A stretch of DNA of 64,000 nt from Candidatus Woesearchaeota archaeon (GCA_964547875.1 CAZJPE010000001.1:38535-102534); one strand, 5' to 3'. Positions 13,400 to 64,000 are shown, numbered from the stretch's first letter. The notes: generated by a model not told the origin, from the sequence alone. Numbers and translations are program-made.

Positions 13400-13405
13400 G
13401 TTACA

Positions 13406-13711
13406 ATGAGAGAGATTGATGAATCTTATTTGGCAAGAAAAATTCGCGATATTTGCAGCGAATCTAAGTCTAATTTAGACATATTTACCTCTCTTGTTTC
13501 AGACAAGGGAGAAAAGGAATATAACAGGATTGATTACGAGGCTTTTTTCACTCATTTTATAGGCATGATAGAGACTATGACACTAATTAAACTTTATCAG
13601 TCAAATTTTAATAGAGAAAAATTTGGAGACATGAAGTTTCATTTAGAAGATTATATTGCAAAGACAAAGAAAAATTTAGTTGAAAGCCTATTGAAGAGGG
13701 AATATGATTAG
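13406..13711 (+). CDS. Hypothetical protein between MoxR and DUF58
   Basis: ORF only; its ends abut moxR and overlap the DUF58 gene. Confidence 0.35.
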   Translation: MREIDESYLARKIRDICSESKSNLDIFTSLVSDKGEKEYNRIDYEAFFTHFIGMIETMTLIKLYQSNFNREKFGDMKFHLEDYIAKTKKNLVESLLKREYD

Positions 13712-44750: not shown

Positions 44751-47700
44751 ATGACAGAAGAAAATAACGAAAAGAAAATTGACGAAGCGATTGAGGAAAA
44801 GGAAAGAGAGAGAAGGAAGAAGGACATGATTGAGAATGGCGTTCAGGGAACTGAAATAGTTGAGGAGATGGAAAAATCTTACATTGATTATGCGATGTCT
44901 GTGATTGTGCAAAGGGCGCTGCCTTCTGTTGAAGATGGCTTGAAACCAGTGCATAGAAGAATTTTGTATTCAATGGAGCAGCTTGGGCTTGATGCTTCAA
45001 AGCCTACAAAAAAATCTGCTACTATTGTAGGAGATGTTATTGGAAAATATCATCCTCATGGAGACATTGCTGTTTATGATGCGCTTGTTAGATTAGCGCA
45101 GGATTTTTCTTTGCGCTATCCTCTTGTGCATGGGCAAGGAAATTTTGGCTGCTTCACAGCAGATACAAAAGTTAAACTTGCTGATGGCAGAGATTTATCT
45201 TTTATTGAGTTGATTGAAGAAAACAATAATGGGAAAAGGAATTTCACATTTACAATAGATAATGGCATTGTTAAAATAGCAGAAGTAAAAAATCCTAGAA
45301 TGACTAAAAAAAATGCAGAGATTATGAAAGTTTTTCTTGATAATGGTCAGGAAATCAAATGTACATTAAATCATTTATTTATGTTAAAGGATGGAAGCTA
45401 TAAAGAAGCAAGAAATCTAAAATCTGGGGACTCGTTGATGCCTCTTTATACGAAACTATCTACTGAAACTGACAGCCTAAAGAATCCAAAAACCATTGGC
45501 TATTCGATGATATTTCAGCCAAAATTAAAATCTTGGAATTTTATTCATATATTGGCTGATGAGTGGAATTTAGATAATAAAATATATGCAGTAAATTCTG
45601 GCAGAATAAGACATCACATTGATTTTAATAAGTTAAATAATAATCCTATAAATATCAAAAGAATGCATTGGAAAGAGCATTGGCAGACACATTACAATTT
45701 AACTTCTTCAAGACATAAAAATGATTTAGATTATAGAAAGAAATTGGAAGAGGGAAGGAGAAGGTTTTGGAGCGACGCTAAAAATCGAGAAGTTTATTCT
45801 CAAAGAATGACTGAAAGAAATTTAGAGAATTGGAAAAAAAGCAGTTATAGAGAAGAAAAACGCATTCAACTTAGTGAAATTAATAAAAAATATTTTAAAG
45901 AGAATCCAGAAGCTATAGAAATAATAAGAAAAAGAGCTTCTATAACTATGAAAAAAATGTGGGAAATTCCAAGATATAAAGAACTTTTTCATGAAAAAAT
46001 TGTCGCTTCTAATAAAAATAGAAAATCAAATCTAACTGGAAAAAAGAAATTTTTAAAGATATGTAATTATTTGCTGACTAAGAATTTACCATTAACAAAA
46101 GAAAATTTTGAAAATATTAGACAAAATATTTTTGGAATAAAAAGCTTTACCAGTTGGAATCATGGAATTAAAAAACATTTTAATGGAGATAAAAATTTAA
46201 TTTTAAATGAATTAAATGGGAATCATAAGGTTGTAGATATAGAATTTATCAATCAACATACTAGCGTTTACGATCTAACAATTGATGATACGCATAATTT
46301 TGCCCTTTCGGCAGGGATTTTTGTGCATAATTCATTAGACGGAGATTCAGCTGCAGCCTATAGATATACAGAAGCACGATTGAGTAAAATCTCTCAAGAG
46401 CTTTTGGCAGACATTGACAAAGAAACTGTCAAGATGAATCCGAATTTTGATAATTCTACAAAAGAACCAGAGACATTGCCTGCTAAACTGCCTAATCTCT
46501 TACTAAATGGGGCGACTGGAATAGCAGTCGGCATGGCTACTAACATACCTCCGCATAATTTGATAGAGTTGTGCGATGCTATTATTGCGTATATTGACAA
46601 TTCAGATGTCAGTATAGATGAACTTTTGCAGATTGTTAGAGGACCTGATTTTCCAACTGGAGGACATGCAATGGGGCCTGGAATTTTAGAGATGTACAAA
46701 ACAGGAAAAGGAAGGATAGTCATGAGAGCTAGAACCTCAATAGAGGAGAAAAAGGGAAGAGAAAACATAATTGTTACAGAGATTCCTTATATGGTTAACA
46801 AGGCAGAGCTGGTTAAGGATATTGCGAGGCTTGCAAGCGAGAAGAGATTGTCTGACATTTCTGACATATGGGATGAATCTGCAAAGGGAAAGATAAGAAT
46901 TGTTATCGAATTGAAGAAAGGCGTTGATTCAAAATATACGATAAACAGATTATACAAATTGACTAATATGCAGACTAATTTTGACGCTAATGTTTTAGCC
47001 TTGGTTGGCAAACAGCCGAGAGTGCTGAATTTGAGGGATGTTATTGTTGAGTATGTTAAATACAGAAGAATGATTGTTACTAATAGAAGTAAGTTTGAAT
47101 TGAAGAAAGCAGAAGATAGATTAGAAATTGTTCTCGGATTATTGATAGCCTTAAAGAATATAGATAGCATTGTTGAGCTTATAAAAAAGAGCAAGACAGT
47201 CAGCGAAGCGCATGAAGGGCTTATGAAGAAATTTGATTTTAGCGACAGACAGGCAAGGGCTGTTTTAGAGACGAAATTGCAGCAGCTTACTTCATTAGAG
47301 CACACAAAATTAAAGGAAGAGGAGCAGAAGCTGAAAGAGACAATAGAATATCTGAAAAATGTTTTGGGCTCTGACAAAGAGATTTTGAAAATTATCAAGA
47401 AAGAGGTTAATGAGCTGAAGAAGGAATATGGAGATGAGAGGAGGACTAAGATCGTGAGAAAGATTGATGAAATTTCTGAAGGCGACTTGATTGAGAAAAA
47501 AGACGTTGTTGTTATGCTGACAAATTCTGGATATATCAAGAGAGTTGATCTTAAGACTTATAAAGAGCAGAAAAGAGGAGGGGCAGGCGTTATGGGTACG
47601 GGATTAAAGGATGATGATTTTGTGAGAAAGATGATTAGCTGTTCAACTCATGATTATTTGCTGTTCTTTACAAAAAGAGGCAGAGTTTACTGGCTTAAGG

Positions 47701-48464
47701 CGCATGACGCTCCTGCTGCAGAAAGACAGGGTAAAGGAAGAAGCATTGCAAACTTACTGAATTTAAGAGAGGAGGCAATTGCCAATGTTATGGCTATTAC
47801 TAACTTTGAATCTGGGTATTTAATGTTTGCTACAAAATTAGGAATTGTGAAGAGGCTGCCTTTAAAGGATGTTTCTAATCCCAGAAGCACGGGAGTTAGA
47901 ATAATGAATCTGCCTGCTGACGGGAGTGACGAGATAATTAATGTCAGCAGAGTAGAGGATGGGCAGGAAGTATTGATTATCACAAAGAAAGGACAGGCTA
48001 TTAGATTTAATTCCAATGATGTTAGGGCTATGGGTAGAGCGAGTTATGGAGTCAAAGGAATTGATTTAGCAAAGAATGATTTAGTTGTTTCTTTAATGGC
48101 TGTTCCTAAAGATGGAAAGACAACTGTTCTAACACTAACGGAAAAGGGATTTGGGAAGAGGTCTGATATTGTGGAATATAGAAAAACTGCGAGAGCTGGA
48201 AAGGGCGTTATTAATTTAAAGACAAATGACAAGACAGGAAGCGTTATTGCATCTGTAGCTGTGAATGACAAAGATTCTGTTATTATTACTACAACAAAAG
48301 GCAATATTATAAGAATTCCAATGAAGGACTTGAGGGTTATGGGGCGAGCAACTCAGGGAGTGAGAGCTGTAAAGCTCAAGGAAGGAGATAAGGTTGCCGA
48401 TGTTGTTCGAGTCCCTGTAATGATTGAAGACTCTCGTTTTGCTGATATGTTTAGTAATCTTTAA
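44751..48464 (+). CDS. gyrA: DNA gyrase subunit A interrupted by an in-frame intein (extein ~843 aa)
   Basis: [23 protein letters not shown], catalytic Tyr in [32 protein letters not shown]-terminal beta-pinwheel repeats. A 394-aa insertion sits between GQGNFG and SLDGDS. Confidence 0.9.
45150..46331 (+). mobile_element. Intein (394 aa) with HNH-type homing endonuclease inside gyrA
   Basis: Starts with Cys ([13 protein letters not shown], block A); block [13 protein letters not shown]-like [24 protein letters not shown]; blocks [24 protein letters not shown] followed by Ser+1. Confidence 0.85.
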
Positions 48465-53532: not shown

Positions 53533-54606
53533 CTATATTTCATTTTTCTCGCGCATATAATCTATTCCTTCCCTTAAACTTACATTTATTCCATCATTTT
53601 CAAATAAACCACGAATTATTTTACCATCATGTCTAAAATGGCTGTTATCATGGGCAATATCTCCAGAATTTTCATTAAAAGAGTAATATAATAATAAGCT
53701 TTCATCATGTATATTTCCAAGCGGACTATTATCTGTATATCTCCCAGTAGTAAATAGAGAAGAAACTTCTGCATCATTTAATGAGGCGTTATAAATTCTG
53801 AATTCGTCTAAACTGCCTGGAACAGTTTGTTCTGTTTCAGTGTTCCAATCCCCAATTTTACCAGGATTAATAGCTCCCACAGCCAAGAAATTTTCAAAAT
53901 CATGAAAGTCATAAAATTCCATTCTTCTGTTTTTTCTTATAACAGCGCTATCAATTGGCTGTTTTTTACCATCTATATATATTGCAAGATAGCCCAAATT
54001 TGGTTTTGCGGTAAGAACAATGTGGTGCCATTCTCCATCTGAAATATTAATATGGCCATGCGTAGCGCCCCTTAATTCACTTCCAAATTCATCTCTTAGA
54101 TTAAAAGCAATATAATTTGTTGTCTGTCCAGTATAATCAATATGCGCGCTCACATTATCGTTTAAATATGCAGAGAACATAGTATCCGTGTCATCACCAT
54201 TTTGTGTTCCAAACGGAGTCCAAACTTCTGTTGTATTTGTCGAATTAACCCAAAAAGAAACAGTAATATTTGTAGATTCTAAATTACTTCCTAAACCTTC
54301 TATAAGTCCTGCATTAATATGCGTCTTAAAATCTCCATCAAGAAATATCCATGTTTGATTTTTCGCAATCAATTCAAAACCGCCCTCATAGAATTTAGTA
54401 AGATTATTTATTATTGCCTCTTTATAAAGAATTTTTTCTCCGTTTTCTTTAATAAAATAGATTTTAATTTTATTTATATCTTTTTCATTTTCGCCATTTT
54501 CTGAAACAGAAAAACCAGTGATTTTACTTTTTAAAAAGAGAATAATAAACCCTACTAATATTAAAATCATTAGGATTATTGTAATTAAATAGAATCTTTT
54601 ATTCAT
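53533..54606 (-). CDS. Signal-anchored LamG/ConA-like domain protein, last gene downstream of the toxin array
   Basis: N-terminal TM; HGHINISDGEWHHIVLTAKPNLGYLAIYIDGKKQ...GSLDEFRIYNASLNDAEVSSLF LamG pattern. Confidence 0.6.
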   Translation of the reverse strand: MNKRFYLITIILMILILVGFIILFLKSKITGFSVSENGENEKDINKIKIYFIKENGEKILYKEAIINNLTKFYEGGFELIAKNQTWIFLDGDFKTHINAGLIEGLGSNLESTNITVSFWVNSTNTTEVWTPFGTQNGDDTDTMFSAYLNDNVSAHIDYTGQTTNYIAFNLRDEFGSELRGATHGHINISDGEWHHIVLTAKPNLGYLAIYIDGKKQPIDSAVIRKNRRMEFYDFHDFENFLAVGAINPGKIGDWNTETEQTVPGSLDEFRIYNASLNDAEVSSLFTTGRYTDNSPLGNIHDESLLLYYSFNENSGDIAHDNSHFRHDGKIIRGLFENDGINVSLREGIDYMREKNEI

Positions 54607-54808
54607 TTTCCAAATAAATTATTTAGATTTATATATTCTTTGTCTTTTTCACAGATATTATATTCTAATGTTTATAGCAATTATATTAAGATTTTCATAA
54701 TCTAAAGAATATTTTTAAGTAGAGTTCGTCATTATAATTATCTTCTAATAAAAGAGGTGTTTAGATAAATTCATTATCTTTTTGATTTATTAGGGTTTGC
54801 ATTTTGAA

Positions 54809-55366
54809 TTAATCAATAATTAAAAAGTAAAAAATTATAGAAAGTAATATAAAAATAATTAATGGAATAATTATATAATATTTTAGCCTTGTTTTAGACA
54901 ATTTAATTAAATAAGCTCCTAAGAAAATTAAGAACAGGGGAGATAGTAAGGGCATCAAAAAGATTTGAGAATAATATAATATTCCTAATATTCCAGATAA
55001 AGGACGAAGAATGATTGGCTCAAAATAAATAATTGAGAAAAGAAAAAGAATAATAACTCCAGAAATTAGCGAAGTGATTCCCATGTGTTTTAATGATTTT
55101 TCTTCTCTTTCTTCAAATTTTATATTAGCTTTAAATTTAATAAATAAGAAAAATGTTATTATAGGTATGCTAGTTATTAGTAAATTCAAAAAATACCATT
55201 CAAATCCGCCCTCATGAGAGATTGAATTGATCCAAATAAAAAAATGTAGCATTCCAAATACTATACTCGTTATTAATAAAATCCAATATCTTATTCTAGG
55301 TAATTTTCTCTTTGGCTTAGCCATCTTAGTGCTTAGATTATTTTTATTTTTATCTCCATTTATCAT
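54809..55366 (-). CDS. Multi-TM membrane protein, candidate immunity protein for toxin 55369-56343
   Basis: 185 aa, 5-6 hydrophobic helices; starts 3 nt after the toxin stop. Confidence 0.5.
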   Translation of the reverse strand: MINGDKNKNNLSTKMAKPKRKLPRIRYWILLITSIVFGMLHFFIWINSISHEGGFEWYFLNLLITSIPIITFFLFIKFKANIKFEEREEKSLKHMGITSLISGVIILFLFSIIYFEPIILRPLSGILGILYYSQIFLMPLLSPLFLIFLGAYLIKLSKTRLKYYIIIPLIIFILLSIIFYFLIID

Positions 55367-55368
55367 CT

Positions 55369-56343
55369 TTATTTCCTACCTTCATAGGCATATATGACTC
55401 CGTCTGGCCCGGGATCTTCAGTTTTACTATAAGGTTTAGAAAACCAAGAACTAATCTGTTCTAAATATGAGTTTTTTGATAAAGAATCTATTGGTTTTGC
55501 TTCGCTATTTTCACTACTGGATTTTTCAAGCTCATCTCCAATATATTCAATTATATTGTTTTTCGTTGTTTTAATATTTTCACGTTTGAAATCAAAAATT
55601 AAATGTTTTATATGCTCCTTCTTTGTTGTTCCCCAATCAGGTCCTCCTTGATGTATTGTATCTCCAAAAACATGCAAATATCTTCCTGCTCCGTTGTCTC
55701 CTCTTCGATATGCTTGAACAAATTTCTGTGCATTTTGCCGGAGTATATTTTCCATATTTTCATTACTAATATCAGAAGCAAGGTGAAAGAATCTATGATT
55801 TTCAGTTTCGGTGTACGAGCGCAAAGGAGGAATGTCTGGTGTAATGGAATCCCATGCTAGTTTAAGCGACTCAATTCTTCCAAATCCCAGTTCTCTACTA
55901 GCGCCATATGTCCCTATAAAATGTATGTCAACTGTTGATTTTCCTGTCGGGTCTGTATATCTATACGGATTATTAAGCACATAAGAATAACAATTCAATG
56001 CCTGAGGATTATAAATATCTGGCTTGATTGTATCACATTGTGTAAACAACTTGATAAATGAACTATAATACCTCGCACCTAAATAATCTAAATCAACTAA
56101 CTTATCTCTCTCCTTGCCAGCAAACAAAAATCTACTTAATTCCAATCCAGAATAAATCTCTCCAAACGGCAAATAAAACTCTTCCTCAACAACATCTCCT
56201 GTCTGATTTGTAACTAATGTTGTGCTGCCTAAATGGTCATCATGATAAAATGTCTTTGCGCCTGAATTGTCTTTCTTCGCAATTAATTTATCATTCGCAT
56301 AATAATATGTTTCATTGAGGATAGTTCCGCTCATTATTTTCAT
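55369..56343 (-). CDS. Orphan RHS-tip toxin module (starts directly at the conserved tip, no N-terminal domain) with a C-terminal toxin domain of unknown activity
   Basis: MKIMS-GTILNETYYYANDKLIAKKDNSGAKTFYHDDHLGSTTLVTNQTGDVVEEEFYLPFGE...DLDYLGARYY...ALNCYSYVLNNPYRYTDPTGK is the RHS repeat-associated core ending; tail KPYSKTEDPGPDGVIYAYEGRK. Confidence 0.7.
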   Translation of the reverse strand: MKIMSGTILNETYYYANDKLIAKKDNSGAKTFYHDDHLGSTTLVTNQTGDVVEEEFYLPFGEIYSGLELSRFLFAGKERDKLVDLDYLGARYYSSFIKLFTQCDTIKPDIYNPQALNCYSYVLNNPYRYTDPTGKSTVDIHFIGTYGASRELGFGRIESLKLAWDSITPDIPPLRSYTETENHRFFHLASDISNENMENILRQNAQKFVQAYRRGDNGAGRYLHVFGDTIHQGGPDWGTTKKEHIKHLIFDFKRENIKTTKNNIIEYIGDELEKSSSENSEAKPIDSLSKNSYLEQISSWFSKPYSKTEDPGPDGVIYAYEGRK

Positions 56344-56352
56344 TTTAGGGTT

Positions 56353-56709
56353 TTATTTTTCATCAACTAATTTTTCTTTCTCTAATATTTCTTTTAATTC
56401 CTTCTTTAATATTGGAATATCTTCATTAATTGTCTTCCAAATTATCCCAATATCAACACCAAAATAATGATGTATCATTTTATCCCTCATCCCTACTATT
56501 TTCTTCCATTCAATATTTTTATATTTATCAATAAATTCCGATGTTAGATTTTTAGCTGCTTCGCCTATTACTTCTATTCTCCTTATAGTAGCGTCCAATA
56601 TATCTCTATTATTCTCAAAATCTCTCTTTGAAAGATTCTTTATAGATTTTTCAATAAGGGTTATATTATCAAGTATATGACTAATAAATACTAAAGGATT
56701 CTTTCTCAT
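56353..56709 (-). CDS. HepT-like (DUF86) toxin of a HepT/MNT module
   Basis: RDKMIHHY gives the Rx4HxY catalytic motif; 118 aa. Confidence 0.8.
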   Translation of the reverse strand: MRKNPLVFISHILDNITLIEKSIKNLSKRDFENNRDILDATIRRIEVIGEAAKNLTSEFIDKYKNIEWKKIVGMRDKMIHHYFGVDIGIIWKTINEDIPILKKELKEILEKEKLVDEK

Positions 56710-56987
56710 ATTATCCTAATTTCCTCTTTAAGTATAGATTTCCTTAATAATGGATTTATTCCTTTATAAGTAAGCAAATCTACTTTTTTCTTTAGTTTTC
56801 TATTTAGTTCCATTTCTAATTCTATCAAACTCAATAAGCCTCCATTGAATTCTATTAAAATATCAATATCGCTATTTTTTTTAGCCTCGCCCCTTGCATA
56901 ACTGCCAAAAATTCCTGCCTTAGGTATATGATATTTTTTTAAGGTGCCTTTAATTTTTGATTTTATCTTGCTTATTTCATTTACCAT
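56706..56987 (-). CDS. MNT minimal nucleotidyltransferase antitoxin
   Basis: GIFGSYARGEAKKNSDIDILIEF = GSxxRG...DxD nucleotidyltransferase motif; 4-nt overlap with HepT. Confidence 0.8.
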   Translation of the reverse strand: MVNEISKIKSKIKGTLKKYHIPKAGIFGSYARGEAKKNSDIDILIEFNGGLLSLIELEMELNRKLKKKVDLLTYKGINPLLRKSILKEEIRII

Positions 56988-57074
56988 ATTATCCTATGAA
57001 ATTGATATTTTTTATATCTTTGGGATTTCCCATCAGGTTGTATAAACCTAAATAAAGTAGAAGGCTCATAATAT

Positions 57075-57554
57075 CTAATTTCCAGAATTATCTTTCTTTG
57101 CAACTAATTTACCATTTGCGTAATAATAAGTTTCATTTAATATTGTTCCATTGCTGTAACGAACTTGAATGAAATTGTCACTTATCTTATTTCTAAAATC
57201 AACAAATTCATCATAGATTATGTTTCTAAATCCAAAATCATAATTTTCATTATGAAATATAAAATGCAAAGAAATTCCTTGATTTAACCAATAGATATTT
57301 TGTTCTTCGTCATAAATGTAACCACTATCAAAATTTTTATCAGAATTATTTAATCCATAAATTGAGAATGTCAAACATTCTCCTAAAATATTATTTGTTA
57401 AATTATTTGAATGACAGATTATAGTGGATTGTGAATAGAAGTCTATTGTGTCGTTCCTTTCAGAGTTCTCTATGTTGTTTTGGGCAAGTGAGAGATTTAA
57501 TAATATGAGAATTAGGAAAATTGCTAAAATTATTTTTGGTAGATTAATATTCAT
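57075..57554 (-). pseudogene. Truncated toxin gene: Sec signal peptide plus N-terminal domain, ending 20 residues into the RHS-tip motif
   Basis: MNINLPKIILAIFLILILLNLSLA signal; ends ISDNFIQVRYSNGTILNETYYYANGKLVAKKDNSGN then stop, i.e. the same tip segment other array members continue through. Confidence 0.55.
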
Positions 57555-57559
57555 TTTTA

Positions 57560-57823
57560 TTATATAATCATTAAAATTATTATTGCTATAATGATGAGAG
57601 ATATGCCTATTCCTGTAGCAGAATTTTTACTTGTTGGTGCGCCCCTAATCCATGCTTTTTTAGTTTTTATAGATTTTACGCCTCCATGTAAAAGCCATAC
57701 GCCAAATAATATTAAGATAATACTATATAAATTAACTTCTTTAAAAGAATAAGATTTTATGAATCCAATTATAAAATATATTAAGTCATATAACCAAATA
57801 AAATTACTTTTCTTTTTCACCAA
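57560..57823 (-). CDS. Small 2-TM membrane protein, candidate immunity for toxin 57827-59182 (non-ATG start)
   Basis: 87 aa; two TM helices; no ATG available near the start (TTG/GTG); starts 3 nt after the toxin stop. Confidence 0.45.
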   Translation of the reverse strand: MVKKKSNFIWLYDLIYFIIGFIKSYSFKEVNLYSIILILFGVWLLHGGVKSIKTKKAWIRGAPTSKNSATGIGISLIIIAIIILMII

Positions 57824-57826
57824 TTT

Positions 57827-59182
57827 TTATATACAGGACATTATAACCCCACATCCTCCTCTGTTGTTATTACTTCTTGACTGTTCTTTATTAGATTTTG
57901 AAGATATTGCATTATTTAAATTTCTTCCGCCTCTATTCGATTGTGAGTTAGAGTTTGTTTGTTTATTGGAAGAATCTACCGTTCCTTTAAATATAGATTC
58001 TCCAAATTCAGAATATCCAGATTGTGCTGTTTGAGATATCGCTTCGCTAAATGTAGCTTTTCCTAATTGTGAGGATGGATAAAATTGGCCAGGCGTTCTT
58101 CTTATTATGCCAGGAAGAGAACTTTGCGAGATTCTTGATGAAATTACAGAATTAAAAACGGCGGATGTTAAAATATCTCTGCCTGAAATCTCATTATACC
58201 CTCTTCCTTCCACTAAAGTCTCTTGAGCAAACTCTTGTCCAGCACCAATGCCTGCTAATGCTGTTGTTCTAATAGCAGTGCCAACACCTGCTGTTGCAAT
58301 ACTTCTAAGCCCACCACTAGCTATAGCCGCTACTGTTGTTCCAGGAGAAATTAGTATACTTGCAGCAGTCGCTCCACCAGCAATCGTTCCAGATAACACA
58401 GCTTTGCCTATATCCCCAGTTTGCTGATAAGTAATATAACCTTGGATGCCTCCTATGACTATTGCGGGCACAGCAACAACCAAGACAGGAATGTTTCCTG
58501 TCTCATCCGTATACTTATACGGATTATTCAAAACATAAGAATAACAATTCAATGCCTGTGGATTATAAATATCTGGCTTTATTGTATCACATTGAATAAA
58601 TAGACTAGCAAATGGATTATAATACCTTGCGCCCAAATAATCTAAATCAACTAACTTATCCCTTTCCTTGCCTGCAAACAAGAATCTGTTTAGTCCAAGA
58701 CCTGAAAATATCTTTCCGAACGGCTCATAGAAATTCTCTTCTACAATATTGCCAGATTGATTTGTTACTAATGTAGTGCTACCTAAATGATCTCCATGAT
58801 AATAATTCTTACTTCCAGAATTGTCTTTCTTAGCAACAAGTTTATCATTGGCATAGTAATAAGTTTCATTTAATATAGTTCCATTAGAATATCTAATTTG
58901 AATAAAATTATCAGAGATATAATAAGTAGTTGCGTTAATGCCTGTGCTATAATCATAATCTGCCTTCTTAACCCTATTTCCTTCTGCATCATAAGCATAT
59001 TGCTCTATTAATCTTCCATTTGTTGAGTTAGTTATTTTTGTTAATTGGTTAAATCCATCATAAGTATAGTTTTTATCAAATCCTGAAATGAGATTGCCAT
59101 TTGGGTCATAAGGAAAAGGAGTCCAGATAATTTCTCCTTCCTCAATATAATTATCTTCTTTCTGTATTGTTATGAGTTTCAT
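57827..59182 (-). CDS. YD-repeat/RHS-tip polymorphic toxin with glycine-zipper (membrane-active) C-terminal domain
   Basis: N-terminal MKLITIQKEDNYIEEGEIIWTPFP; YD repeats YTYDGFNQL / YAYDAEGNRV; RHS tip ...YYHGDHLGSTTLVTNQSG...DLDYLGARYY...NNPYKYTDETGN; then IPVLVVAVPAIVIGGIQG...TIAGGATAASILISPGTTVAAIASGG; tail RGGCGVIMSCI. Confidence 0.75.
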   Translation of the reverse strand: MKLITIQKEDNYIEEGEIIWTPFPYDPNGNLISGFDKNYTYDGFNQLTKITNSTNGRLIEQYAYDAEGNRVKKADYDYSTGINATTYYISDNFIQIRYSNGTILNETYYYANDKLVAKKDNSGSKNYYHGDHLGSTTLVTNQSGNIVEENFYEPFGKIFSGLGLNRFLFAGKERDKLVDLDYLGARYYNPFASLFIQCDTIKPDIYNPQALNCYSYVLNNPYKYTDETGNIPVLVVAVPAIVIGGIQGYITYQQTGDIGKAVLSGTIAGGATAASILISPGTTVAAIASGGLRSIATAGVGTAIRTTALAGIGAGQEFAQETLVEGRGYNEISGRDILTSAVFNSVISSRISQSSLPGIIRRTPGQFYPSSQLGKATFSEAISQTAQSGYSEFGESIFKGTVDSSNKQTNSNSQSNRGGRNLNNAISSKSNKEQSRSNNNRGGCGVIMSCI

Positions 59183-59691
59183 TTCTTAATATTTTTATAT
59201 TTCTTAAATAACCCTCCTACTATTAATACAACAAATATGTATTGTAAGGGATAAATTATTAAAAACGATAGAATCCCAAAAAAATCAACCAAATCTGTAT
59301 AGGAACTTGGATCATAGGGTATAGTTGATTTATTAGCCAAATAAAAGCCAATATTGTTGGCTATTTCGGCTGTTATTCCTATTGGAATCAACATAAATAC
59401 CAACACACTTAAAAATATAAAATGAAAATTATACTTTATAGGTTTCAAATAAGGTATTAAAGTTATTAGATTATGTAATAAATAAAGAGGAATTAAAACT
59501 AAAATAAAGCTTCCTAATATTATCTCTTCTAAACCACTAGAACCAAGAACAGAGAGATATATTTCACTATATTGAAATAGGTAATTTGTAATAAACCAAA
59601 CTATTGCCGTTGATAAAATGATAGAGAAAGAAAGATAAACTATCAATTTCAGCTGATTTCCTATAATATCTTTTATGTTATTTTTTTTCAT
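59179..59691 (-). CDS. Multi-TM membrane protein, candidate immunity for toxin 59693-61051
   Basis: ATG 1 nt after the toxin stop (the track extends to GTG 59700); 4-5 TM helices. Confidence 0.5.
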   Translation of the reverse strand: MKKNNIKDIIGNQLKLIVYLSFSIILSTAIVWFITNYLFQYSEIYLSVLGSSGLEEIILGSFILVLIPLYLLHNLITLIPYLKPIKYNFHFIFLSVLVFMLIPIGITAEIANNIGFYLANKSTIPYDPSSYTDLVDFFGILSFLIIYPLQYIFVVLIVGGLFKKYKNIKK

Positions 59692-59692
59692 C

Positions 59693-61051
59693 TTATGCAC
59701 AACTCATGATTTTGCCACATCCTTTATTTCTACTACCTTCAGATTTATCTTTATTATATGGTTTTTCAACTATTCTTTTATCATAGTTATATGTTTTATC
59801 TATTCCTGGAGAAATTGCCCAAGGAGATAGATCTCCCTTAGGAAAACTACTGCCTGCATTTTCTGTAGCAGTTCTTGCGAAAACATTTGAATTAGATCTA
59901 CTGCTACCTACTTTAGGGTTGAGAACATACGGCACCTTCGCTTCATTCAATTTGTTTCCTTCTGCTATAATATCATTAATAAATTCTGTATCTGTCTTTC
60001 CTTCTGGCGTATTCAATAATACATTGCTATATTCTTTAGTTCCTCCTGTTTTCTCCACATTCTTTCCAAATTGCAAAATACTATTAGGATTAAAAATTCC
60101 ATCTGAAGCATATGCCCCTAAATTGAAGTTGGTTTCTCCTCTAAAGTCTTCCGGATTATCAGGTATAACATTAAAGTAAGAATGAGTAGTATGACTTGTA
60201 ACAAAATTAGAGACCACTCTAAGAAAAAGAATATCACTATTTGCATATTGATTATTTATACTTCTTGTAACTAAATAAACCTCCTTGCCATTTGGGTCTA
60301 TGTATTTATAAGGATTGTTAAGCACATAGGCATAATGATTTAGATTTTGTGGGTTGAATATATTAGCTATCATAGAATCAGGAGAAATAAACATCCTCAT
60401 AATTGAAGCCTGATAATACCTTGCTCCATAATAATAAATATCAACTAATTTATCAAACTCTTGAGCCGTGAATAAATATCTTGAACTTTCACTTCCACTA
60501 TACACATCACCAAACGGCAAATAAAACTCTTCTTCTGTAATATTTCCTGTTTGATTAGTTACTAATGTAATAGAACCCAAGTGGTCAGAATGATAATATG
60601 TCTTTGCACCGCTATTATCTTTCTTTACAATTAATTTATCATTTGCATAGTAATATGTTTCATTTAATATTGTTCCGTTTGTATAGCGGATTTGAATGAA
60701 ATTGTCGCTAATGTAATAGGTTGTTTGATTATTTCCTGTTGTGTAATCATATTCTACTTTCTTTATTCTGTTGCCATCAGCATCATACCTATATTCTGCT
60801 ATAACATTTCCTGTGGCATTCTTCTTTCTAACTGAAGATAATTGATTGAATGGATCATACTCGTAATATTTGCCAAGTCCTTTTATTAAATTTCCATTTG
60901 CGTCATAAGTCATATCTGTGTTATAAGTTAAGAGATTTTCGTAATCTAAGGCGTATTCTAGATAGAGTTCTTCTTCGCTATTATATTTATTTTCTGATAA
61001 AAACGGCGTCCAGATTAGTATGTTATTTTTTGGGTTTGTTAGGATTTGCAT
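59693..61051 (-). CDS. YD-repeat/RHS-tip polymorphic toxin, C-terminal toxin domain of unknown activity
   Basis: N-terminal MQILTNPKNNILIWTPFL; YD repeats MTYDANGNL / YEYDPFNQL / YRYDADGNRI; RHS tip to NNPYKYIDPNGK; ~200-aa unique C-terminal domain; tail EKPYNKDKSEGSRNKGCGKIMSCA. Confidence 0.75.
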   Translation of the reverse strand: MQILTNPKNNILIWTPFLSENKYNSEEELYLEYALDYENLLTYNTDMTYDANGNLIKGLGKYYEYDPFNQLSSVRKKNATGNVIAEYRYDADGNRIKKVEYDYTTGNNQTTYYISDNFIQIRYTNGTILNETYYYANDKLIVKKDNSGAKTYYHSDHLGSITLVTNQTGNITEEEFYLPFGDVYSGSESSRYLFTAQEFDKLVDIYYYGARYYQASIMRMFISPDSMIANIFNPQNLNHYAYVLNNPYKYIDPNGKEVYLVTRSINNQYANSDILFLRVVSNFVTSHTTHSYFNVIPDNPEDFRGETNFNLGAYASDGIFNPNSILQFGKNVEKTGGTKEYSNVLLNTPEGKTDTEFINDIIAEGNKLNEAKVPYVLNPKVGSSRSNSNVFARTATENAGSSFPKGDLSPWAISPGIDKTYNYDKRIVEKPYNKDKSEGSRNKGCGKIMSCA

Positions 61052-61052
61052 T

Positions 61053-61304
61053 TTAAATAAAAGTCAGATATATTCCTAAAATGATTAAAATAATACCTAT
61101 ACAAATGCCTAATGGAGCAAAAAACTTTCTTATAATATTTGCCGCTTTATCTTCGCCAAAAATTTTTCTCCAAATAAAAGCTTTTGGGCTTTTCTTGACA
61201 TAATTCTCTAGAAACTTTTTATCTTTAATGGCTTTTGTCGCATAATAAAAGTTTATTACACCAGCTAATAAAATTAATAAAGAATAAGTGTTAAATTTAA
61301 TCAT
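61053..61304 (-). CDS. Small 2-TM membrane protein (extra/orphan immunity-like gene)
   Basis: 83 aa; sits between the barstar-like gene and the next toxin. Confidence 0.4.
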   Translation of the reverse strand: MIKFNTYSLLILLAGVINFYYATKAIKDKKFLENYVKKSPKAFIWRKIFGEDKAANIIRKFFAPLGICIGIILIILGIYLTFI

Positions 61305-61348
61305 ATTTATATTAGTTTTATTAAGTTTAAAAGTTTTTGTTTTTATTC

Positions 61349-61642
61349 TTATTTCTCAATCTTAAATTTTACATGATATTTATGATTTCTTATTATTTCA
61401 AGTATATTTTTTAAGAATTCTTCAGGCAATTCTTTTTTTGATTTATCAAAGTTTCTCCAAACTAAAATTATCTTTTCTTTGAACTCAAATTGGTATCCTC
61501 CATATAGGATATCGTCAAAAGCATCATAGTTTCTACCAAAACCTTTAAAATCATTAGTCAGCACACTTACTATCTCGTCATAAAATCCTTTTATATCATG
61601 AAAATTTTCTCCATCTATAATAAAAGTCTTTATTTTCTTCAT
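61349..61642 (-). CDS. Barstar-like RNase inhibitor (immunity protein)
   Basis: IIDGENFHDIKGFYDEIVSVL...FGRNYDAFDDIL...IILVWRNFDKSKKELPEEFLKNILEII is colinear with barstar ([21 protein letters not shown]...YGENLDALWDCL...LVLEWRQFEQSKQ). Confidence 0.8.
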   Translation of the reverse strand: MKKIKTFIIDGENFHDIKGFYDEIVSVLTNDFKGFGRNYDAFDDILYGGYQFEFKEKIILVWRNFDKSKKELPEEFLKNILEIIRNHKYHVKFKIEK

Positions 61643-62688
61643 TTCTTTTTAGAACCTCCAAAAACATTTTTAATCTTATCTACGATTTTAGTAAATGAAC
61701 TCTTTTCGTAATGCTTATCAGTATAATATGTTTCTCCGCCCTTACCAGTTATAACTCTTTCTGGATTTTTTCTACTAGTTACATCATGAGTTGTATAATA
61801 ACCTAGTTCTTGTTTTGGAAGTGCGCCCTCTACATTCTTAAATTCATGGGGTCTTAGCCCATCAGTCTTTCCACTTTGTATTTTATTAATTGTATCTTGG
61901 ACACTTTGAGGCAAATCGGATAACTTGGTTTCCTTTAATTTATCCGCGACATTTTCTGCGCCCTTCAAAGCATCTCCCACCTTCTCCCCGGTCTTAGCCA
62001 AATCAGCCACATCACTAACTCTATCAATTCCTTTAGCAACTCTAAATCCTGCCCCTAATCCAGTTACAAAAGGCAAGGCTGCTCCTGCAACATCTAAACC
62101 AAGAGCAACATAATTGGCAGAATTGTCAGGATCTTGAATAATGCTATAAATATCATATCCGATAAATCCTACATCGGCAACAGTTTCTATATAATGCCCA
62201 GTACCATCTTTGTATTTGTAGGGATTGTTTCTTGCATAATTATAACAGTTTAATTGTTGAGGATCGTAAATATCTGGCTTAATTGTATCACACTGTATAA
62301 ACAACCTCATAATAGAAGCTTGATAATACCTCGCCCCATAATAATACAAGTCAACAAGCTTATCAAACTCTTGAGCTGTGTATAAAAACCTAGATAATCC
62401 AGCTCCAGATAGTATATCGCCAAAAGGACCATAAAAGTTTTCTTCAACAATATGCCCACTCTGATTAGTAACTAAACTCGTACTACCTAAATGGTCTCCA
62501 TGATAAAATGTTTTTGCTCCTGAATTATCCTTTTTAGCAACTAATTTATCATTGGCGTAATAATATGTTTCGTTGAGAATTGTTCCGTTAGTGTTCTCAT
62601 CATTTAAAATATATTCCATATAAAATTCTTCTTGTGGCATTTGTGTCCAGATGAACTCGTTATCTTTTTCTATAATAATAGTTATCAT
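61639..62688 (-). CDS. RHS-tip polymorphic toxin with C-terminal barnase/RNase Sa-T1 family ribonuclease domain
   Basis: N-terminal MITIIIEKDNEFIWTQMP; RHS tip; C-terminal LPQSVQDTINKIQSG...FKNVEGALPKQELGYYTTHDV...ERVITGKGGETYYTDKHYEKSSFTKI aligns with RNase Sa (FQNRESVLPTQSYGYYHEYTV...RRIICGEATQEDYYTGDHYATFSLI). Confidence 0.8.
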   Translation of the reverse strand: MITIIIEKDNEFIWTQMPQEEFYMEYILNDENTNGTILNETYYYANDKLVAKKDNSGAKTFYHGDHLGSTSLVTNQSGHIVEENFYGPFGDILSGAGLSRFLYTAQEFDKLVDLYYYGARYYQASIMRLFIQCDTIKPDIYDPQQLNCYNYARNNPYKYKDGTGHYIETVADVGFIGYDIYSIIQDPDNSANYVALGLDVAGAALPFVTGLGAGFRVAKGIDRVSDVADLAKTGEKVGDALKGAENVADKLKETKLSDLPQSVQDTINKIQSGKTDGLRPHEFKNVEGALPKQELGYYTTHDVTSRKNPERVITGKGGETYYTDKHYEKSSFTKIVDKIKNVFGGSKKK

Positions 62689-63074
62689 TTTTTATCTACA
62701 TTTCTTAATTTTCTCATTAATTTAACAATTCCAAGACCTAAATAAAATCCAATTAATAAACCTGCTATTTTAATAACTAAAAAATCTCCCCAATAATATT
62801 TTAATAATTGCCAAGATATGATGGCTAGTAATATAGAAAATAACAATTCTCTTTCGTTAAGTGAGTTTTTGTTCATTTTAAAAAAGCCCCTTCCTTCTTT
62901 GGAATAGATTATCGATGTTACTAAAAATCCAAAGAATATACCGAGTATCATAATAATTGATCCAAAAATTATAATAAAGACTGGGCTACGCTTGCCTATG
63001 ATAGAGGCACCAATCGCAAGAATCAAAAAAGCAATCCCATACATTATTATTGTAACTATTTTTTCTTTATCCAT
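62685..63074 (-). CDS. 3-4 TM membrane protein, candidate immunity for toxin 63077-64000+
   Basis: The ATG (MDKEKIV...) lies 2 nt after the toxin stop; its end overlaps the next toxin start (ATGA). Confidence 0.5.
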   Translation of the reverse strand: MDKEKIVTIIMYGIAFLILAIGASIIGKRSPVFIIIFGSIIMILGIFFGFLVTSIIYSKEGRGFFKMNKNSLNERELLFSILLAIISWQLLKYYWGDFLVIKIAGLLIGFYLGLGIVKLMRKLRNVDKK

Positions 63075-63076
63075 TT

Positions 63077-64000
63077 TTATGCACAACTCATAACTTTATT
63101 GCAACCTCCATCTTGATTTTTTTCTGCTAAATTACTGCCTTTATTTATAGGTTTACTTCCATATCCATAAATTACACCATCAGGACCAGGATCTTGAGTC
63201 CTACTGAATGGTTTATTGAAGTTATATTCATTATAATAATCTTGTAACGTATTTTCTTTTATAAGTTTTGTGTTATCTAATTTCTCTTTTTCAAAATCTT
63301 CATCAGGTTCTCTATCTAATTCTCCAAAATCAAAAATAGGATATCCTTTACTCCACTGATAAGCTACTCCAACTTTTGCCAATATATTTGGATCATTAAG
63401 TCCCTGTGTAATAGGGTCGCCTTTTATAAAATTAGTAGTTATTTGGGTTGTTACAGTTTCTGTTATGATGGGGGCACCAACAGTTGCTATTGATGAACCT
63501 CCTGAAAGAATACCTGCTACAACAGTAGCTCCTGCAACTCCTCCTCCAGCCAAACCTGCGACAGCGGAATCTGTAATGTCCACCCAAGTAGCTTGCGGAT
63601 TATTTGCTGTATTAATGGCTCCTATAATCGCTCCAATGACAGCTCCCCCAACAACTATACTCGCCACAGTAATTGTTATCGGGTCTATTAAATTTCCACT
63701 CTCATCAGTATATTTGTAGGGATTATTCAAGACATAACTATAACAATTCAATGCCTGAGGATTATAAATATCTGGCTTAATTGTATCGCATTGAGTGAAT
63801 AATCTCATAATTGACGCTTGATAGTAACGAGCGCCATAATAATACAAATCAATAGCCTTGTCCAATTCCTTAGCTGTATAGAGGAATCTGCTTAATTCAG
63901 GCCCTATAAAGATATCTCCGAATGGACCATAGAAATTCTCTTCTGTTATATTCCCTGTCTGATTTGTCACAAGCGTTGTTGAACCAAGATGATCTGGATG
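63077..64000 (-). CDS. RHS-tip polymorphic toxin with glycine-zipper C-terminal domain (5' part outside window)
   Basis: Frame open to the window edge (…HPDHLGSTTLVTNQTGN…); RHS tip to NNPYKYTDESGN; ITITVASIVVGGAVIGAIIGAI...VAGLAGGGVAGATVVAGILSGG; tail KPFSRTQDPGPDGVIYGYGSK...GGCNKVMSCA. Confidence 0.7.
   Translation of the reverse strand, partial: HPDHLGSTTLVTNQTGNITEENFYGPFGDIFIGPELSRFLYTAKELDKAIDLYYYGARYYQASIMRLFTQCDTIKPDIYNPQALNCYSYVLNNPYKYTDESGNLIDPITITVASIVVGGAVIGAIIGAINTANNPQATWVDITDSAVAGLAGGGVAGATVVAGILSGGSSIATVGAPIITETVTTQITTNFIKGDPITQGLNDPNILAKVGVAYQWSKGYPIFDFGELDREPDEDFEKEKLDNTKLIKENTLQDYYNEYNFNKPFSRTQDPGPDGVIYGYGSKPINKGSNLAEKNQDGGCNKVMSCA

Follow-up and report, generated by a model that had tools for sequence, protein, structure and literature searches.

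A short shared N-terminal leader on array-internal RHS-tip toxin cassettes of DPANN-type archaea and its possible function in translational restart

In Salmonella, the translation of orphan Rhs toxins begins at internal starts, and the products function within the cell as toxin-antitoxin modules (PMC7043789). The archaeal locus analyzed here resembles the enterobacterial orphan rhs-CT/rhsI loci (PMC3967940, PMC7043789): an array of tip, toxin, and immunity gene follows one delivery-competent gene in the same orientation, the delivery region is absent from the array members, and decayed copies are found at the distal end of the array. As in the orphans of Salmonella Typhimurium, a dedicated internal translation start may lead to intracellular production of the archaeal cassettes. 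The Salmonella orphans, however, have an arbitrary truncation point, an internal promoter, and a CTG start inside the conserved rhs sequence, whereas every archaeal orphan carries the same short added leader with its ATG on the stop codon of the previous gene. The 5' end of an orphan should be a plain rhs truncation, but the archaeal cassettes are capped by a discrete leader that is absent from the main gene. Moreover, the host is an archaeon, delivery involves a Sec signal instead of a type VI secretion system, and the RHS shell and the tip are encoded by separate genes.

Such a shell, encoded apart from a toxin-bearing closing piece, is also the arrangement of TcB and TcC of the ABC (Tc) toxins (TcdB2-TccC3, YenB/YenC), a likeness that is read here from the genes. 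The model of the archaeal tip superposes on TccC3 and YenC/RHS2 with a TM-score of about 0.7. Unlike TcC (about 680 aa), the archaeal piece is split off much nearer to the C terminus, the tip representing about 20% of the shell (target TM-score 0.17 to 0.26), and tip subunits carry their own signal peptide or leader. A TcA, as in the Tc toxins, was not found. The HAPSRI at the end of gene 1 and the YDANGNLI at the start of the tip are contiguous in the unsplit archaeal homologue P0111, which reads IHAPTRVGETTLFYDANGNLI without a break. In other polymorphic toxin systems, such as the cdiA-CT/cdiI orphans and mafB-CT cassettes that Zhang et al. reportedly described in 2012, the stored modules are said to share a conserved 5' segment with the expressed gene, which permits tip replacement by recombination. 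There, the shared segment belongs to the main gene (the VENN or DWVKN region), and its archaeal counterpart is the RHS tip, whereas the archaeal leader is an element in addition to it.

The window, which is the whole stretch of 64,000 nucleotides that was analyzed, contains the array of a locus that forms one tightly packed minus-strand gene string of gene 1, gene 2, an immunity gene, and spare cassettes. Gene 1, upstream of gene 2, encodes a 1520-aa RHS shell with a Sec signal, TcdB_toxin_midN, an FG-GAP propeller, and RHS repeats, and ends with …HAPSRITIAT. Cassettes A, B, and C follow gene 1 and gene 2 (L001) in the same orientation and are without a signal peptide or LamG/Ig domains. They yield RHS_repeat and RHS matches in Pfam and contain the RHS-associated core with its terminal autocleavage motif of the PxxxxDPxG type, NNPYKY[TIK]D[EPG][TN]G, in front of a variable toxin, and the AlphaFold model of the tip matches the Rhs, TccC, and teneurin shells. 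Toxin and immunity gene follow downstream as an RNase/barstar pair in cassette A according to Pfam, and the small membrane ORFs behind the glycine-rich toxins are probably immunity genes. The features are as follows, from upstream to downstream.

63077..64000, minus strand: 3' end of main gene 2, which encodes 1122 aa (Sec signal/anchor, LamG and Ig-like domains, an RHS tip with the last YD repeats and the core, and a toxin) and runs past the window end
62685..63074, minus strand: 129-aa membrane ORF that presumably confers immunity to the main toxin; overlap between its stop and the leader A start
61639..62688, minus strand: cassette A toxin with leader, short RHS tip, and barnase-type RNase
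62635..62688, minus strand: leader copy A, MITIIIEKDNEFIWTQMP; its ATG shares bases with the stop of the immunity ORF in front of it (ATGA)
61349..61642, minus strand: barstar immunity gene of cassette A (Pfam)
61053..61304, minus strand: additional membrane ORF of 83 aa, with its stop immediately next to the leader B start
59693..61051, minus strand: cassette B toxin with leader, probable domain remnant, RHS tip, and an uncharacterised toxin with a …GCGKIMSCA tail
60998..61051, minus strand: leader copy B, MQILTNPKNNILIWTPFL; begins 1 nt past the stop of the 83-aa ORF
60914-60997, minus strand: probable pre-tip domain remnant in cassette B, …EEELYLEYALDYENLLTYNTD
59179..59700, minus strand: 173-aa membrane ORF, presumed immunity gene of cassette B; its stop overlaps the start of leader C
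57827..59182, minus strand: cassette C toxin with leader, RHS tip (pLDDT above 95), and a glycine-rich toxin with a …GCGVIMSCI tail
59111..59182, minus strand: leader copy C, MKLITIQKEDNYIEEGEIIWTPFP; 6-aa insertion, ATG overlapping the upstream stop, fused straight to the first YD repeat
57560..57823, minus strand: 87-aa membrane ORF, presumed immunity gene of cassette C
57075..57554, minus strand: head-only fragment D with Sec signal MNINLPKIILAIFLILILLNLSLAQ, a Cys-containing domain, and the start of an RHS tip; ends with KKDNSGN and a stop
56353..56987, minus strand: MNT/HepT toxin-antitoxin pair, inserted between D and E
55369..56343, minus strand: cassette E, the 3' part of a split signal-type cassette; starts with MKIMSGTILNETYYY, no leader
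54809..55366, minus strand: 185-aa membrane ORF, presumed immunity gene of cassette E; leader remnant R follows
54690..54802, minus strand: degenerate terminal leader copy R, MQTLINQKDNEFI, stop, TPLLLEDNYNDELYLK…LDYEN; at the W site it reads MQTLINQKDNEFI, stop, TPLL

A short shared N terminus at the cassette starts was confirmed. The motif M-x-[TIL]-x-x-x-x-K-…-I-W-T-[PQ] opens three intact minus-strand ORFs with starts at 62688, 61051, and 59182, where the N termini quoted by the first-pass annotation are indeed present. In-frame stops are located 1 to 4 codons 5' of the three ATGs, so that these ORFs cannot begin further upstream. Scored with a leader HMM, the copies reached 27 to 42 bits and the next best of 941 six-frame ORFs reached 5 bits, a gap indicating that the motif did not arise by chance. 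Independently, a repeat search of the window recovered the copies at 54802, 61051, and 62688 as one 88-nt family (D6). The copy at 54802, copy R, was absent from the list of the first-pass annotation. It sits directly behind the last immunity ORF of the array, its W codon has been changed into a stop at 54761-54763 followed by a frameshift, and no RHS tip comes after it.

The leader had been described as lacking a hydrophobic Sec signal, which agrees with the hydropathy data. The maximum 11-residue Kyte-Doolittle mean in the first 45 aa was 0.2 to 0.8 for the three leader ORFs versus 3.3 to 3.9 for gene 1, gene 2, and ORF 57075-57554, the last of which had rightly been assigned a classical Sec signal. 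By this measure, the leaders do not have the makeup of a Sec (class I/II) signal peptide, in which a positively charged n-region is followed by a hydrophobic h-region of about 10 to 15 residues, and no hydrophobic stretch, no RR of a Tat signal, and no KG/RG plus hydrophobic run of an archaeal class III (pilin-like) signal was present in any of the three. Pfam scans of the full leader-bearing proteins gave no N-terminal match at E <= 0.01 (PAAR, LXG, WXG100, MuF, TPS/filamentous haemagglutinin, and MafB-N types), a test that covers Pfam families and a leader of only 18 to 24 aa, and this is in line with the earlier statement that no known trafficking family could be recognized. AlphaFold predicted the leader to be disordered (pLDDT 46 to 55) and the RHS tip to be ordered (pLDDT above 95).

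That YD repeats follow the leader directly, as had been claimed, is the case for copy C (59182), but in copy B about 30 aa (SENKYNSEEELYLEYALDYENLLTYNTD) are located in between, and leader A is joined much deeper in the tip, at NGTILNETYYY. In a related main gene, a separate domain lies ahead of the RHS tip, and the 30 aa of copy B are probably what is left, in diverged form, of its final strands. The leader is joined at differing points of main-gene-like sequence, these being half a domain (L003 o2), half an Ig domain (P0123), a YD repeat (C), or the late tip (A), and each of the at least six distinct leader-body junctions is in frame. In L003, the junction precisely marks a drop in main-gene identity from 84% to 43%. 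The leader is not contained in the main gene, with HMM scores within gene 2 of 1.6 bits or less. Its derivation as a main-gene remnant from the mature N terminus of gene 2 (IIIEKNNLTIF) was rejected (-1.1 bits versus 27 to 42 bits for the true copies), and a match to the sequence upstream of the L003 main-gene junction was at noise level with 43% DNA identity. As a weak guess, IWTP might be related to IKWTS, which forms the penultimate strand of the pre-tip domain, given that the two occur together in L003 o2. A frameshift fusion of the upstream membrane ORF to the toxin as a signal anchor was rejected as well, the leader frame being -1 relative to the upstream ORF in the window and +1 in L003.

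Besides the leader, the same RHS tip may be headed by a signal peptide plus a Cys domain of about 110 aa (57075-57554, L003:7939) or, in the main gene, by a signal/anchor with LamG and Ig-like domains, and a bare signal peptide serves as the head in 71 of the 120 best homologues. The head swapping on the RHS tip proposed by the first-pass annotation is real, but several heads and not two are involved, and a trafficking role of the leader is unsupported.

The first-pass annotation had made its interpretation dependent on a recurrence of the motif outside of this array, and the motif does recur. In a profile search of 1.84 billion proteins, it was at residue 1 in every match and never internal, and all matches were RHS tips, with no other cargo. 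In at least nine further contigs or genomes, RHS-tip cassettes start with a looser version, MKQxLIQK…E-h-h-F/W-h-P-h-P, with the kinship of the L006 and L008 leaders, which are missed by the narrow leader HMM, resting on a rank test and on L042 intermediates. All named homologues belong to DPANN MAGs, and the narrow IWTP form is confined to a small number of contigs that are close relatives. When alignments of the leader alone were used, word-index searches yielded nothing or just P0122. In DNA-pattern scans of the GTDB representative genomes and JGI metagenomes, a single genome, of a Nanoarchaeota member from Hainich groundwater, contained true copies; another 7 and 14 stretches that matched look like chance, with no IW and frequent stops.

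The position of the leader within the arrays was uniform. All 18 copies with known context start between -35 and +11 nt from the stop of an upstream small ORF, usually of the membrane or immunity type, none of the 18 is on the first gene of its locus, and the first RHS-tip gene has a Sec signal in each array seen whole. DNA similarity among the copies begins at the ATG, and the sequence upstream is unrelated. Array ends are decayed or toxin-less leader remnants, namely, R in the window, P0013 in L003, P0122 in L040, and L042:7149, and in a collapsed 33-aa ORF in L039 the leader runs straight into the conserved C-terminal tail of the toxin. Neither an exporter nor any other conserved partner gene was seen beside the window array or conserved around the other arrays examined, although a dedicated co-occurring exporter had been considered by the first-pass annotation. 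Its central claim, that the leader dictates the export route, is not supported when this exporter result is taken together with the array-internal position behind small ORFs, the remnants at array ends, the RNA-level character of the first half of the leader, and the disorder in the AlphaFold model.

This RNA-level character is apparent from codons 2 to 10, which are C/A-rich and G-poor, with a C+A fraction of 0.82 in the leaders versus 0.58 at 124 other ORF starts. The C+A content was above the prediction from the peptide and local codon usage in 12 of 12 leaders (mean excess 0.095 versus 0.033 at background starts), and the folding energy of the -20..+40 region had a mean of -1.7 kcal/mol for 17 leaders versus -4.9 for 140 other starts (p = 5e-6), all of these tests counting copies related by descent as independent items. 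A milder C/A bias exists also at other gene starts. The open initiation region is likewise present in distant lineages with different peptides (L006, L008, L042, and L043). A Shine-Dalgarno-like motif precedes 0 of the 3 intact window copies versus 13 of 42 long window ORFs. Within the first nine codons, the amino acids vary non-conservatively (T/I/Q/K/L) and the nucleotides stay C/A. The first half of the leader behaves like an initiation element that acts at the RNA level. In its second half, the peptide E-h-h-F/W-h-P-h-P is kept across lineages differing elsewhere (NEFIWTPIP, NEIVFVPVP, and LDIIFIPIP), and its Thr and Pro codons vary synonymously.

A "downstream CA repeat" in Escherichia coli was reportedly found by Martin-Farmer and Janssen in 1999 to raise the translation of mRNAs without a Shine-Dalgarno sequence. 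The archaeal leader resembles it in its G-poor, C/A-rich tract right 3' of the ATG, the missing Shine-Dalgarno sequence, and the very low predicted structure, but it differs in that the tract also encodes a semi-conserved peptide, M-x-Q-x-L-I-Q-K. To our knowledge, the effect has never been shown in archaea or for a restart after an upstream ORF.

The explanation favored here, which is given an even chance of being correct, is that the motif represents a conserved 5' cap, or restart leader, of array-internal, delivery-less "orphan" RHS-tip toxin cassettes in DPANN-type archaea. Each spare cassette starts at an ATG that coincides with or adjoins the stop of the small ORF before it, 8 or 9 C/A-rich, G-poor codons leave the initiation region essentially unstructured, and a short hydrophobic-proline stretch (E-F-I-W-T-P-I) leads in frame into 5'-truncated main-gene-like sequence, the leader taking the place of the signal peptide and surface domains. 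Ribosomes ending the immunity ORF may then restart without a Shine-Dalgarno site. The cassette would be translated yet remain cytoplasmic, with its toxin neutralized by its own immunity protein. Both the translation of the long operon and the expression of the downstream immunity genes would be sustained in this way, and, by analogy with what was shown for the Salmonella orphan Rhs, each toxin/immunity pair would be placed under selection as an addiction-like module, while intact tips would stay available for recombination onto a signal-bearing head. A cytoplasmic addiction would not require the 130 to 230 aa of RHS tip that have been kept. Furthermore, a pure initiation device needs no conserved peptide in its second half, which indicates that a peptide-level role is possible.

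Such a role may be that of a tag for trafficking or docking independent of Sec. Being linear, short, and disordered, the motif would hand the tip-toxin to a partner, for instance, the RHS shell of gene 1, a small membrane protein whose gene is located directly upstream, or a bridge between cells, and the cassettes would be deployable alternative warheads. This is considered unlikely, albeit the motif is always at residue 1, the hydrophobic-proline core is common to several DPANN lineages, the leader, like many linear motifs, shows disorder in a model of its own, and it replaces the signal peptide on an otherwise identical tip, which is a separate subunit anyway because the RHS is split in this locus. 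Neither an exporter nor a conserved partner gene is next to the arrays, the motif occurs on RHS tips and no other cargo and never on the first gene, toxin-less and decayed copies terminate the arrays, and the first nine codons vary as amino acids but keep C/A. The products of gene 1 and gene 2 are, moreover, Sec substrates that cross the membrane unfolded, which makes cytoplasmic docking hard to picture, and signal-type mini-RHS proteins need no such strand. The related and clearly improbable proposal that the E-h-h-F/W-h-P-h-P core recruits signal-less RHS-tip toxins to Sec-independent delivery in DPANN archaea, possibly by docking on the separately encoded RHS shell or through episymbiont cell-cell contacts, would, if true, turn the "orphan" cassettes into a magazine of ready-to-fire warheads instead of silent spares.

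Alternatively, the leader could be a neutral hitch-hiker without a function of its own, derived from one ancestral truncated cassette and spread by homologous recombination of blocks composed of tip, toxin, immunity gene, leader, and tip. In a double crossover between repeated tips, the leader would be taken along and the frame kept automatically, the narrow IWTP form is found in a few closely related contigs, and most positions change freely, as indicated by 11 non-synonymous and 4 synonymous differences over 30 codons between window copy B and the terminal copy of L003. Cassette DNA, however, is down to 73 to 85% identity with longest exact matches of 14 to 39 nt, values that led to the rejection of recent gene conversion among cassettes, and the leader copies are at 60 to 75%. 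All intact toxins have retained the ATG, the frame, and W-T-P, the loss of which is limited to decayed cassettes (R and L040), and the in-frame state of all of the six or more junctions and the unstructured initiation region that distant lineages maintain with different peptides (L006, L008, L042, and L043) make a neutral passenger quite unlikely.

A DNA-level recombination site at the cassette boundaries, either an integron-like recombinase site or a 3' homology arm for toxin-immunity swaps, would account for the precise location at every boundary, including that after the last immunity gene, for the L039 ORF with its leader straight on the toxin tail, and for an IS110-type transposase fragment fused to RHS sequence at the end of L008, but it is highly improbable: copies within one array are 60 to 75% identical over about 55 to 90 nt, too poor for homologous recombination, for which the adjacent tips offer far better homology; the boundaries have no inverted repeat or attC-like structure, and the array scan no Rfam match; a Pfam scan of the array-flanking window ORFs revealed no recombinase/integrase and no exporter; and synonymous variation at conserved Thr/Pro codons points to coding constraint.

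The usual view of orphan toxin cassettes is that of silent spares with arbitrary truncation points. A dedicated and conserved start module on these cassettes argues that archaeal RHS arrays are built for translation throughout. It also provides a sequence handle for such cassettes in DPANN genomes, composed of the ATG on the upstream stop, the C/A-rich tract, and the hydrophobic-proline stretch. The conflict and host-interaction biology of DPANN archaea is almost unknown. If the peptide half of the leader binds a partner, this would point to a new route by which archaea load or export toxins; otherwise, the leader would be a natural example of a Shine-Dalgarno-free restart by way of an unstructured coding leader.

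The window's final 10.5 kb (53.5-64 kb, minus strand) hold the distal portion of an RHS toxin locus, which starts outside the window, further upstream on the same contig (L001, taken from ena:ERZ27284378 k139_317676, 290 kb). Downstream of gene 2, almost zero intergenic space is left along the array. From upstream to downstream, the features are:

L001:1685-6247, gene 1, the RHS shell (1520 aa) with signal peptide, TcdB_toxin_midN, FG-GAP repeats, a long run of RHS repeats and the C terminus …HAPSRITIAT
L001:6244-9612, 3' end at window 63077-64000 (minus), gene 2, the main tip and toxin gene (1122 aa) with signal/anchor, LamG, Ig-like domains, the last few YD repeats plus RHS core, and toxin; overlaps gene 1 by ATGA
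62685-63074 (minus), immunity-type membrane ORF, first after gene 2
61639-62688 (minus), cassette A, barnase-type RNase
61349-61642 (minus), barstar of cassette A
61053-61304 (minus), 83-aa membrane ORF after the barstar, directly before the leader of B
59693-61051 (minus), cassette B, then a 173-aa membrane ORF
57827-59182 (minus), cassette C, then an 87-aa membrane ORF
57075-57554 (minus), fragment D, a head-only piece with signal peptide
56353-56987 (minus), MNT/HepT pair
55369-56343 (minus), cassette E, then a 185-aa membrane ORF

The MNT/HepT toxin-antitoxin pair sits inside a signal-type RHS-tip cassette (55369-57554, minus), parting head D from body E with a duplication of about 22 aa (GTILNETYYYAN.KL.AKKDNSG), and the same insertion is present in a second contig (L039:2207-3939). 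Directly after the array, on the same strand, follows a 357-aa signal-peptide protein with LamG (Laminin_G_3; 53533-54606, minus), which is similar to the head portion of gene 2 but has no RHS tip. A second small membrane ORF (63-83 aa) follows the recognizable immunity gene in many cassettes and directly precedes the next leader, as in the window after the barstar, in L003:9835-10029 after the colicin-D immunity gene, and in L006:9801-10013, L008:9805-10026 and L043:5703-5894; the last three look related (…LLP.IG…IV..LRK…). Elsewhere in the window, the DNA gyrase A gene (44751-48464, plus), with gyrase B directly upstream (42294-44183), has an intein, an Intein_splicing match at residues 143-527 that interrupts the topoisomerase domain.

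The N-termini of A, B and C are present exactly as the first-pass annotation gave them, and in-frame stops 1 to 4 codons upstream of the starts mean that these ORFs cannot begin further 5'. A hydrophobic segment, clear in gene 1, gene 2 and D, is indeed absent from all three. A degenerate copy, R, is located at 54802 after the last immunity ORF and reads MQTLINQKDNEFI (stop) TPLLLEDNYNDELYLK…LDYEN; its Trp codon has become a stop, a frameshift occurs later, and no RHS tip comes after it. A repeat search independently found the copies at 54802, 61051 and 62688 as an 88-nt family (D6), and a leader HMM, applied to the six-frame ORFs of the window and of related loci (941 in all), scored the true copies at 27 to 42 bits and the next best at 5 bits, with nothing leader-like in gene 2. 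That YD repeats directly follow the leader, as had been proposed, holds for C but not for A and B. About 30 aa (…EEELYLEYALDYENLLTYNTD) intervene in B, with the counterparts LTQIYASESSFDPILIITYNTD in L003 and EYSSESS…PYLIVSYN in L040, and comparison with a related array suggests that these residues are what is left, in diverged form, of the final strands of the domain preceding the tip in a main gene. The leader of A is joined much deeper inside the tip, at NGTILNETYYY.

The leader also recurs outside this array, in other contigs and genomes; a lack of such recurrence would have refuted the first-pass annotation. A leader profile search of 1.84 billion representative proteins (E <= 0.001) gave five matches, every one at residue 1 and none internal: B, A, P0124 (a 482-aa cassette from a Hainich groundwater Nanoarchaeota MAG), P0123 (532 aa) and P0122 (a 47-aa remnant). 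Genomic context was examined for several loci, and each showed the same layout. The array of L003 runs from gene 1, gene 2 and immunity genes to MQTLTIQKENNEFTWTSIP… (482 aa) with an immunity gene and MQTQTTQKQNNELIWTPISS… (519 aa) with immunity genes, then to a colicin-D cassette of the signal type, likewise with an immunity gene, and closes with the toxin-less copy MQTITNQKNKEFIWTPISP… (P0013). The four leaders of L042 (MKQRLIQKQADSENEIVFVPVSIE…, MKTIQKEAELENEIVFVPVPIE…, MKQKFVLKDSELDIIFIPIPIQ… and the truncated MKQKIIQKEEVESELIFIPLHP…) bridge the NEFIWTP form of the window and the looser versions in L006, L008 and L043, and an HMM of the loose form only ranked the narrow leaders 1st, 3rd, 4th, 5th and 8th of 350 N-termini. 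In total, roughly 30 leaders were identified. At the DNA level, exact matches to the narrow pattern are very rare and were found in just one species-representative genome and one metagenome series. In the decayed relic of L040, a leader and a frameshifted tip survive along with what remains of an immunity gene. A 33-aa ORF at L039:1213-1314, MKQTQIHKQLKQAKINKGGGNVKSGCGVTMSCL (stop), has a leader fused straight to a Cys-rich conserved toxin tail, as though a cassette had shrunk until only its two conserved ends were left. At the array end of L008, an ORF (12267-13535) joins the N-terminus of an IS110-type (DEDD) transposase to RHS shell repeats, either through a genuine insertion or, perhaps, as a chimera made in assembly.

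The idea of alternative heads on one RHS tip was correct, and the situation is richer than stated, with at least four head types. When the first 250 aa of B were used as the query, 71 of the best 120 homologues were proteins of about 400 to 440 aa with a classical signal peptide straight before the first YD repeat, from Pacearchaeota, Woesearchaeota, Nanoarchaeota and similar MAGs; a minority begin with M-x-Q-x-L-I-Q-x-K… instead. Such signal-peptide "mini-RHS" proteins (about 420 aa, tip and toxin only) are common in DPANN MAGs, and some of their genes are accompanied by an immunity gene and nothing else of the locus (L010, L011). In a structure model of residues 1-240 of C, based on an 89-sequence alignment, the RHS tip reached a pLDDT above 95, and residues 1-20 were coil with a pLDDT of 46 to 55. 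The modeled tip superposes on the C-terminal fifth of the T6SS Rhs, TccC3, YenC and teneurin shells (query TM-score about 0.7, target TM-score 0.17 to 0.26); alone, it cannot make a cocoon. In P0111, an unsplit homologue from archaea, the sequence IHAPTRVGETTLFYDANGNLI runs on uninterrupted, which means that the DPANN genes are the result of a true split of the RHS protein just before the tip, here into a shell gene ending in …HAPSRITIAT and a second gene for tip plus toxin.

The leader is most economically read as the start module of cassettes that lie inside the array and lack a delivery region. Each of the 18 leader-type starts whose context is known falls near the stop of an upstream small ORF, no more than 35 nt inside that ORF or 11 nt past its stop. 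A leader-type gene never opens its locus, and the first tip-bearing gene always carries a signal peptide. Copies resemble each other from the ATG onward, whereas the 45 nt in front of it share nothing except a richness in A. The leader does not belong to the main gene. Downstream, the leader is joined in frame to half a pre-tip domain (L003 o2), half an Ig-like domain (P0123), the last-strand remnant (B, L003 o1, P0003, P0122, R), a YD repeat (C) or a site late in the tip (A); the second cassette of L003 has 84% DNA identity to the main gene from NENLYNDIG on versus 43%, which is noise, in the 60 nt before. In leader codons 2-9, the amino acids change non-conservatively (T/I/Q/K/L/N/P) but the C and A nucleotides are kept; in residues 10-18, the hydrophobic-Pro pattern is kept and the Thr and Pro codons vary synonymously.

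At the RNA level, C and A together made up a fraction of 0.82 of the 27 nt that follow the ATG in 11 leaders versus 0.58 in 124 other ORF starts. In each of 12 leaders, this fraction exceeded what the encoded peptide and the local codon usage would predict (mean excess 0.095 versus 0.033 for ordinary starts). The predicted folding energy from -20 to +40 had a mean of -1.7 kcal/mol for 17 leaders, several at 0.0, compared to -4.9 for 140 other starts of the same loci and -6.4 for random 60-mers of the window; p-values for these comparisons overstate independence because leader copies are related, but the effect persists in lineages with differing leader peptide sequences. No Shine-Dalgarno-like motif was found in the three intact window copies; one is present in about one-third of the long ORFs of the window. 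On the start-module reading, ribosomes finishing an immunity ORF would restart at an ATG in an open, C/A-rich tract without a Shine-Dalgarno site, and the product, without any export signal, would be neutralized by its own immunity protein. This agrees with the orphan Rhs toxins of Salmonella, which were shown experimentally to be made from internal starts and to act as intracellular toxin-antitoxin modules, a behavior that explains their upkeep (PMC7043789). Three observations speak for selection on translation from the leader: cassette DNA has diverged to 73-85% identity without long exact tracts; the ATG and the reading frame have been kept all the same, along with intact ORFs of 350 to 530 aa; and decay of the ATG or the frame is confined to copies that have lost the toxin (R, L040).

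Restart leaves unexplained the cross-lineage conservation of the hydrophobic-Pro peptide core, which is conserved and disordered as in short binding motifs. These RHS systems are split, moreover, with the tip as a subunit of its own. Both points leave a small probability for export or trafficking directed by the leader, as the first-pass annotation had suggested. This proposal is unsupported and considered improbable, because no known trafficking domain in Pfam matches the leader, no transporter or other partner gene was seen beside the arrays examined, including that of the window, the profile search of 1.84 billion proteins found no leader on non-RHS cargo, and the leader is missing from locus-opening genes. 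Two further readings were rated lower: a neutral hitch-hiker spread via recombination between tips, and a DNA recombination site.

The opposite end of the cassettes deserves separate mention. Unrelated toxins of the window share the same Cys-rich C-terminal tail, …GGCNKVMSCA, …KGCGKIMSCA or …GGCGVIMSCI, each before the stop (63077-63106, 59693-59722 and 57827-57856, minus), and …GCGFTMSCGSGCGSFMSCGH and …GGCGVLMSCP, also terminal, occur elsewhere; tails are found in L003:3759-5207, L008:8146-9321, L043:2868-5402 and P0123. DPGPDGVIY[GA]Y often precedes the tail, and a 21-nt repeat (D19) is common to the tails of the main toxin and B. As a C-terminal signal, the tail might act in sorting, lipidation or metal binding, and it may be more informative on trafficking than the N-terminal leader.

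No paper on RHS arrays in DPANN archaea or on a conserved leader of orphan cassettes was found in the literature, and the 2012 survey of polymorphic toxins says of archaea only that such systems are rare there (PMC3482391). The setting of the orphan Rhs cassettes differs here in being archaeal, Sec-based and split-RHS, and the new aspect is best filed as a dedicated start leader that replaces arbitrary truncation on orphan Rhs cassettes.
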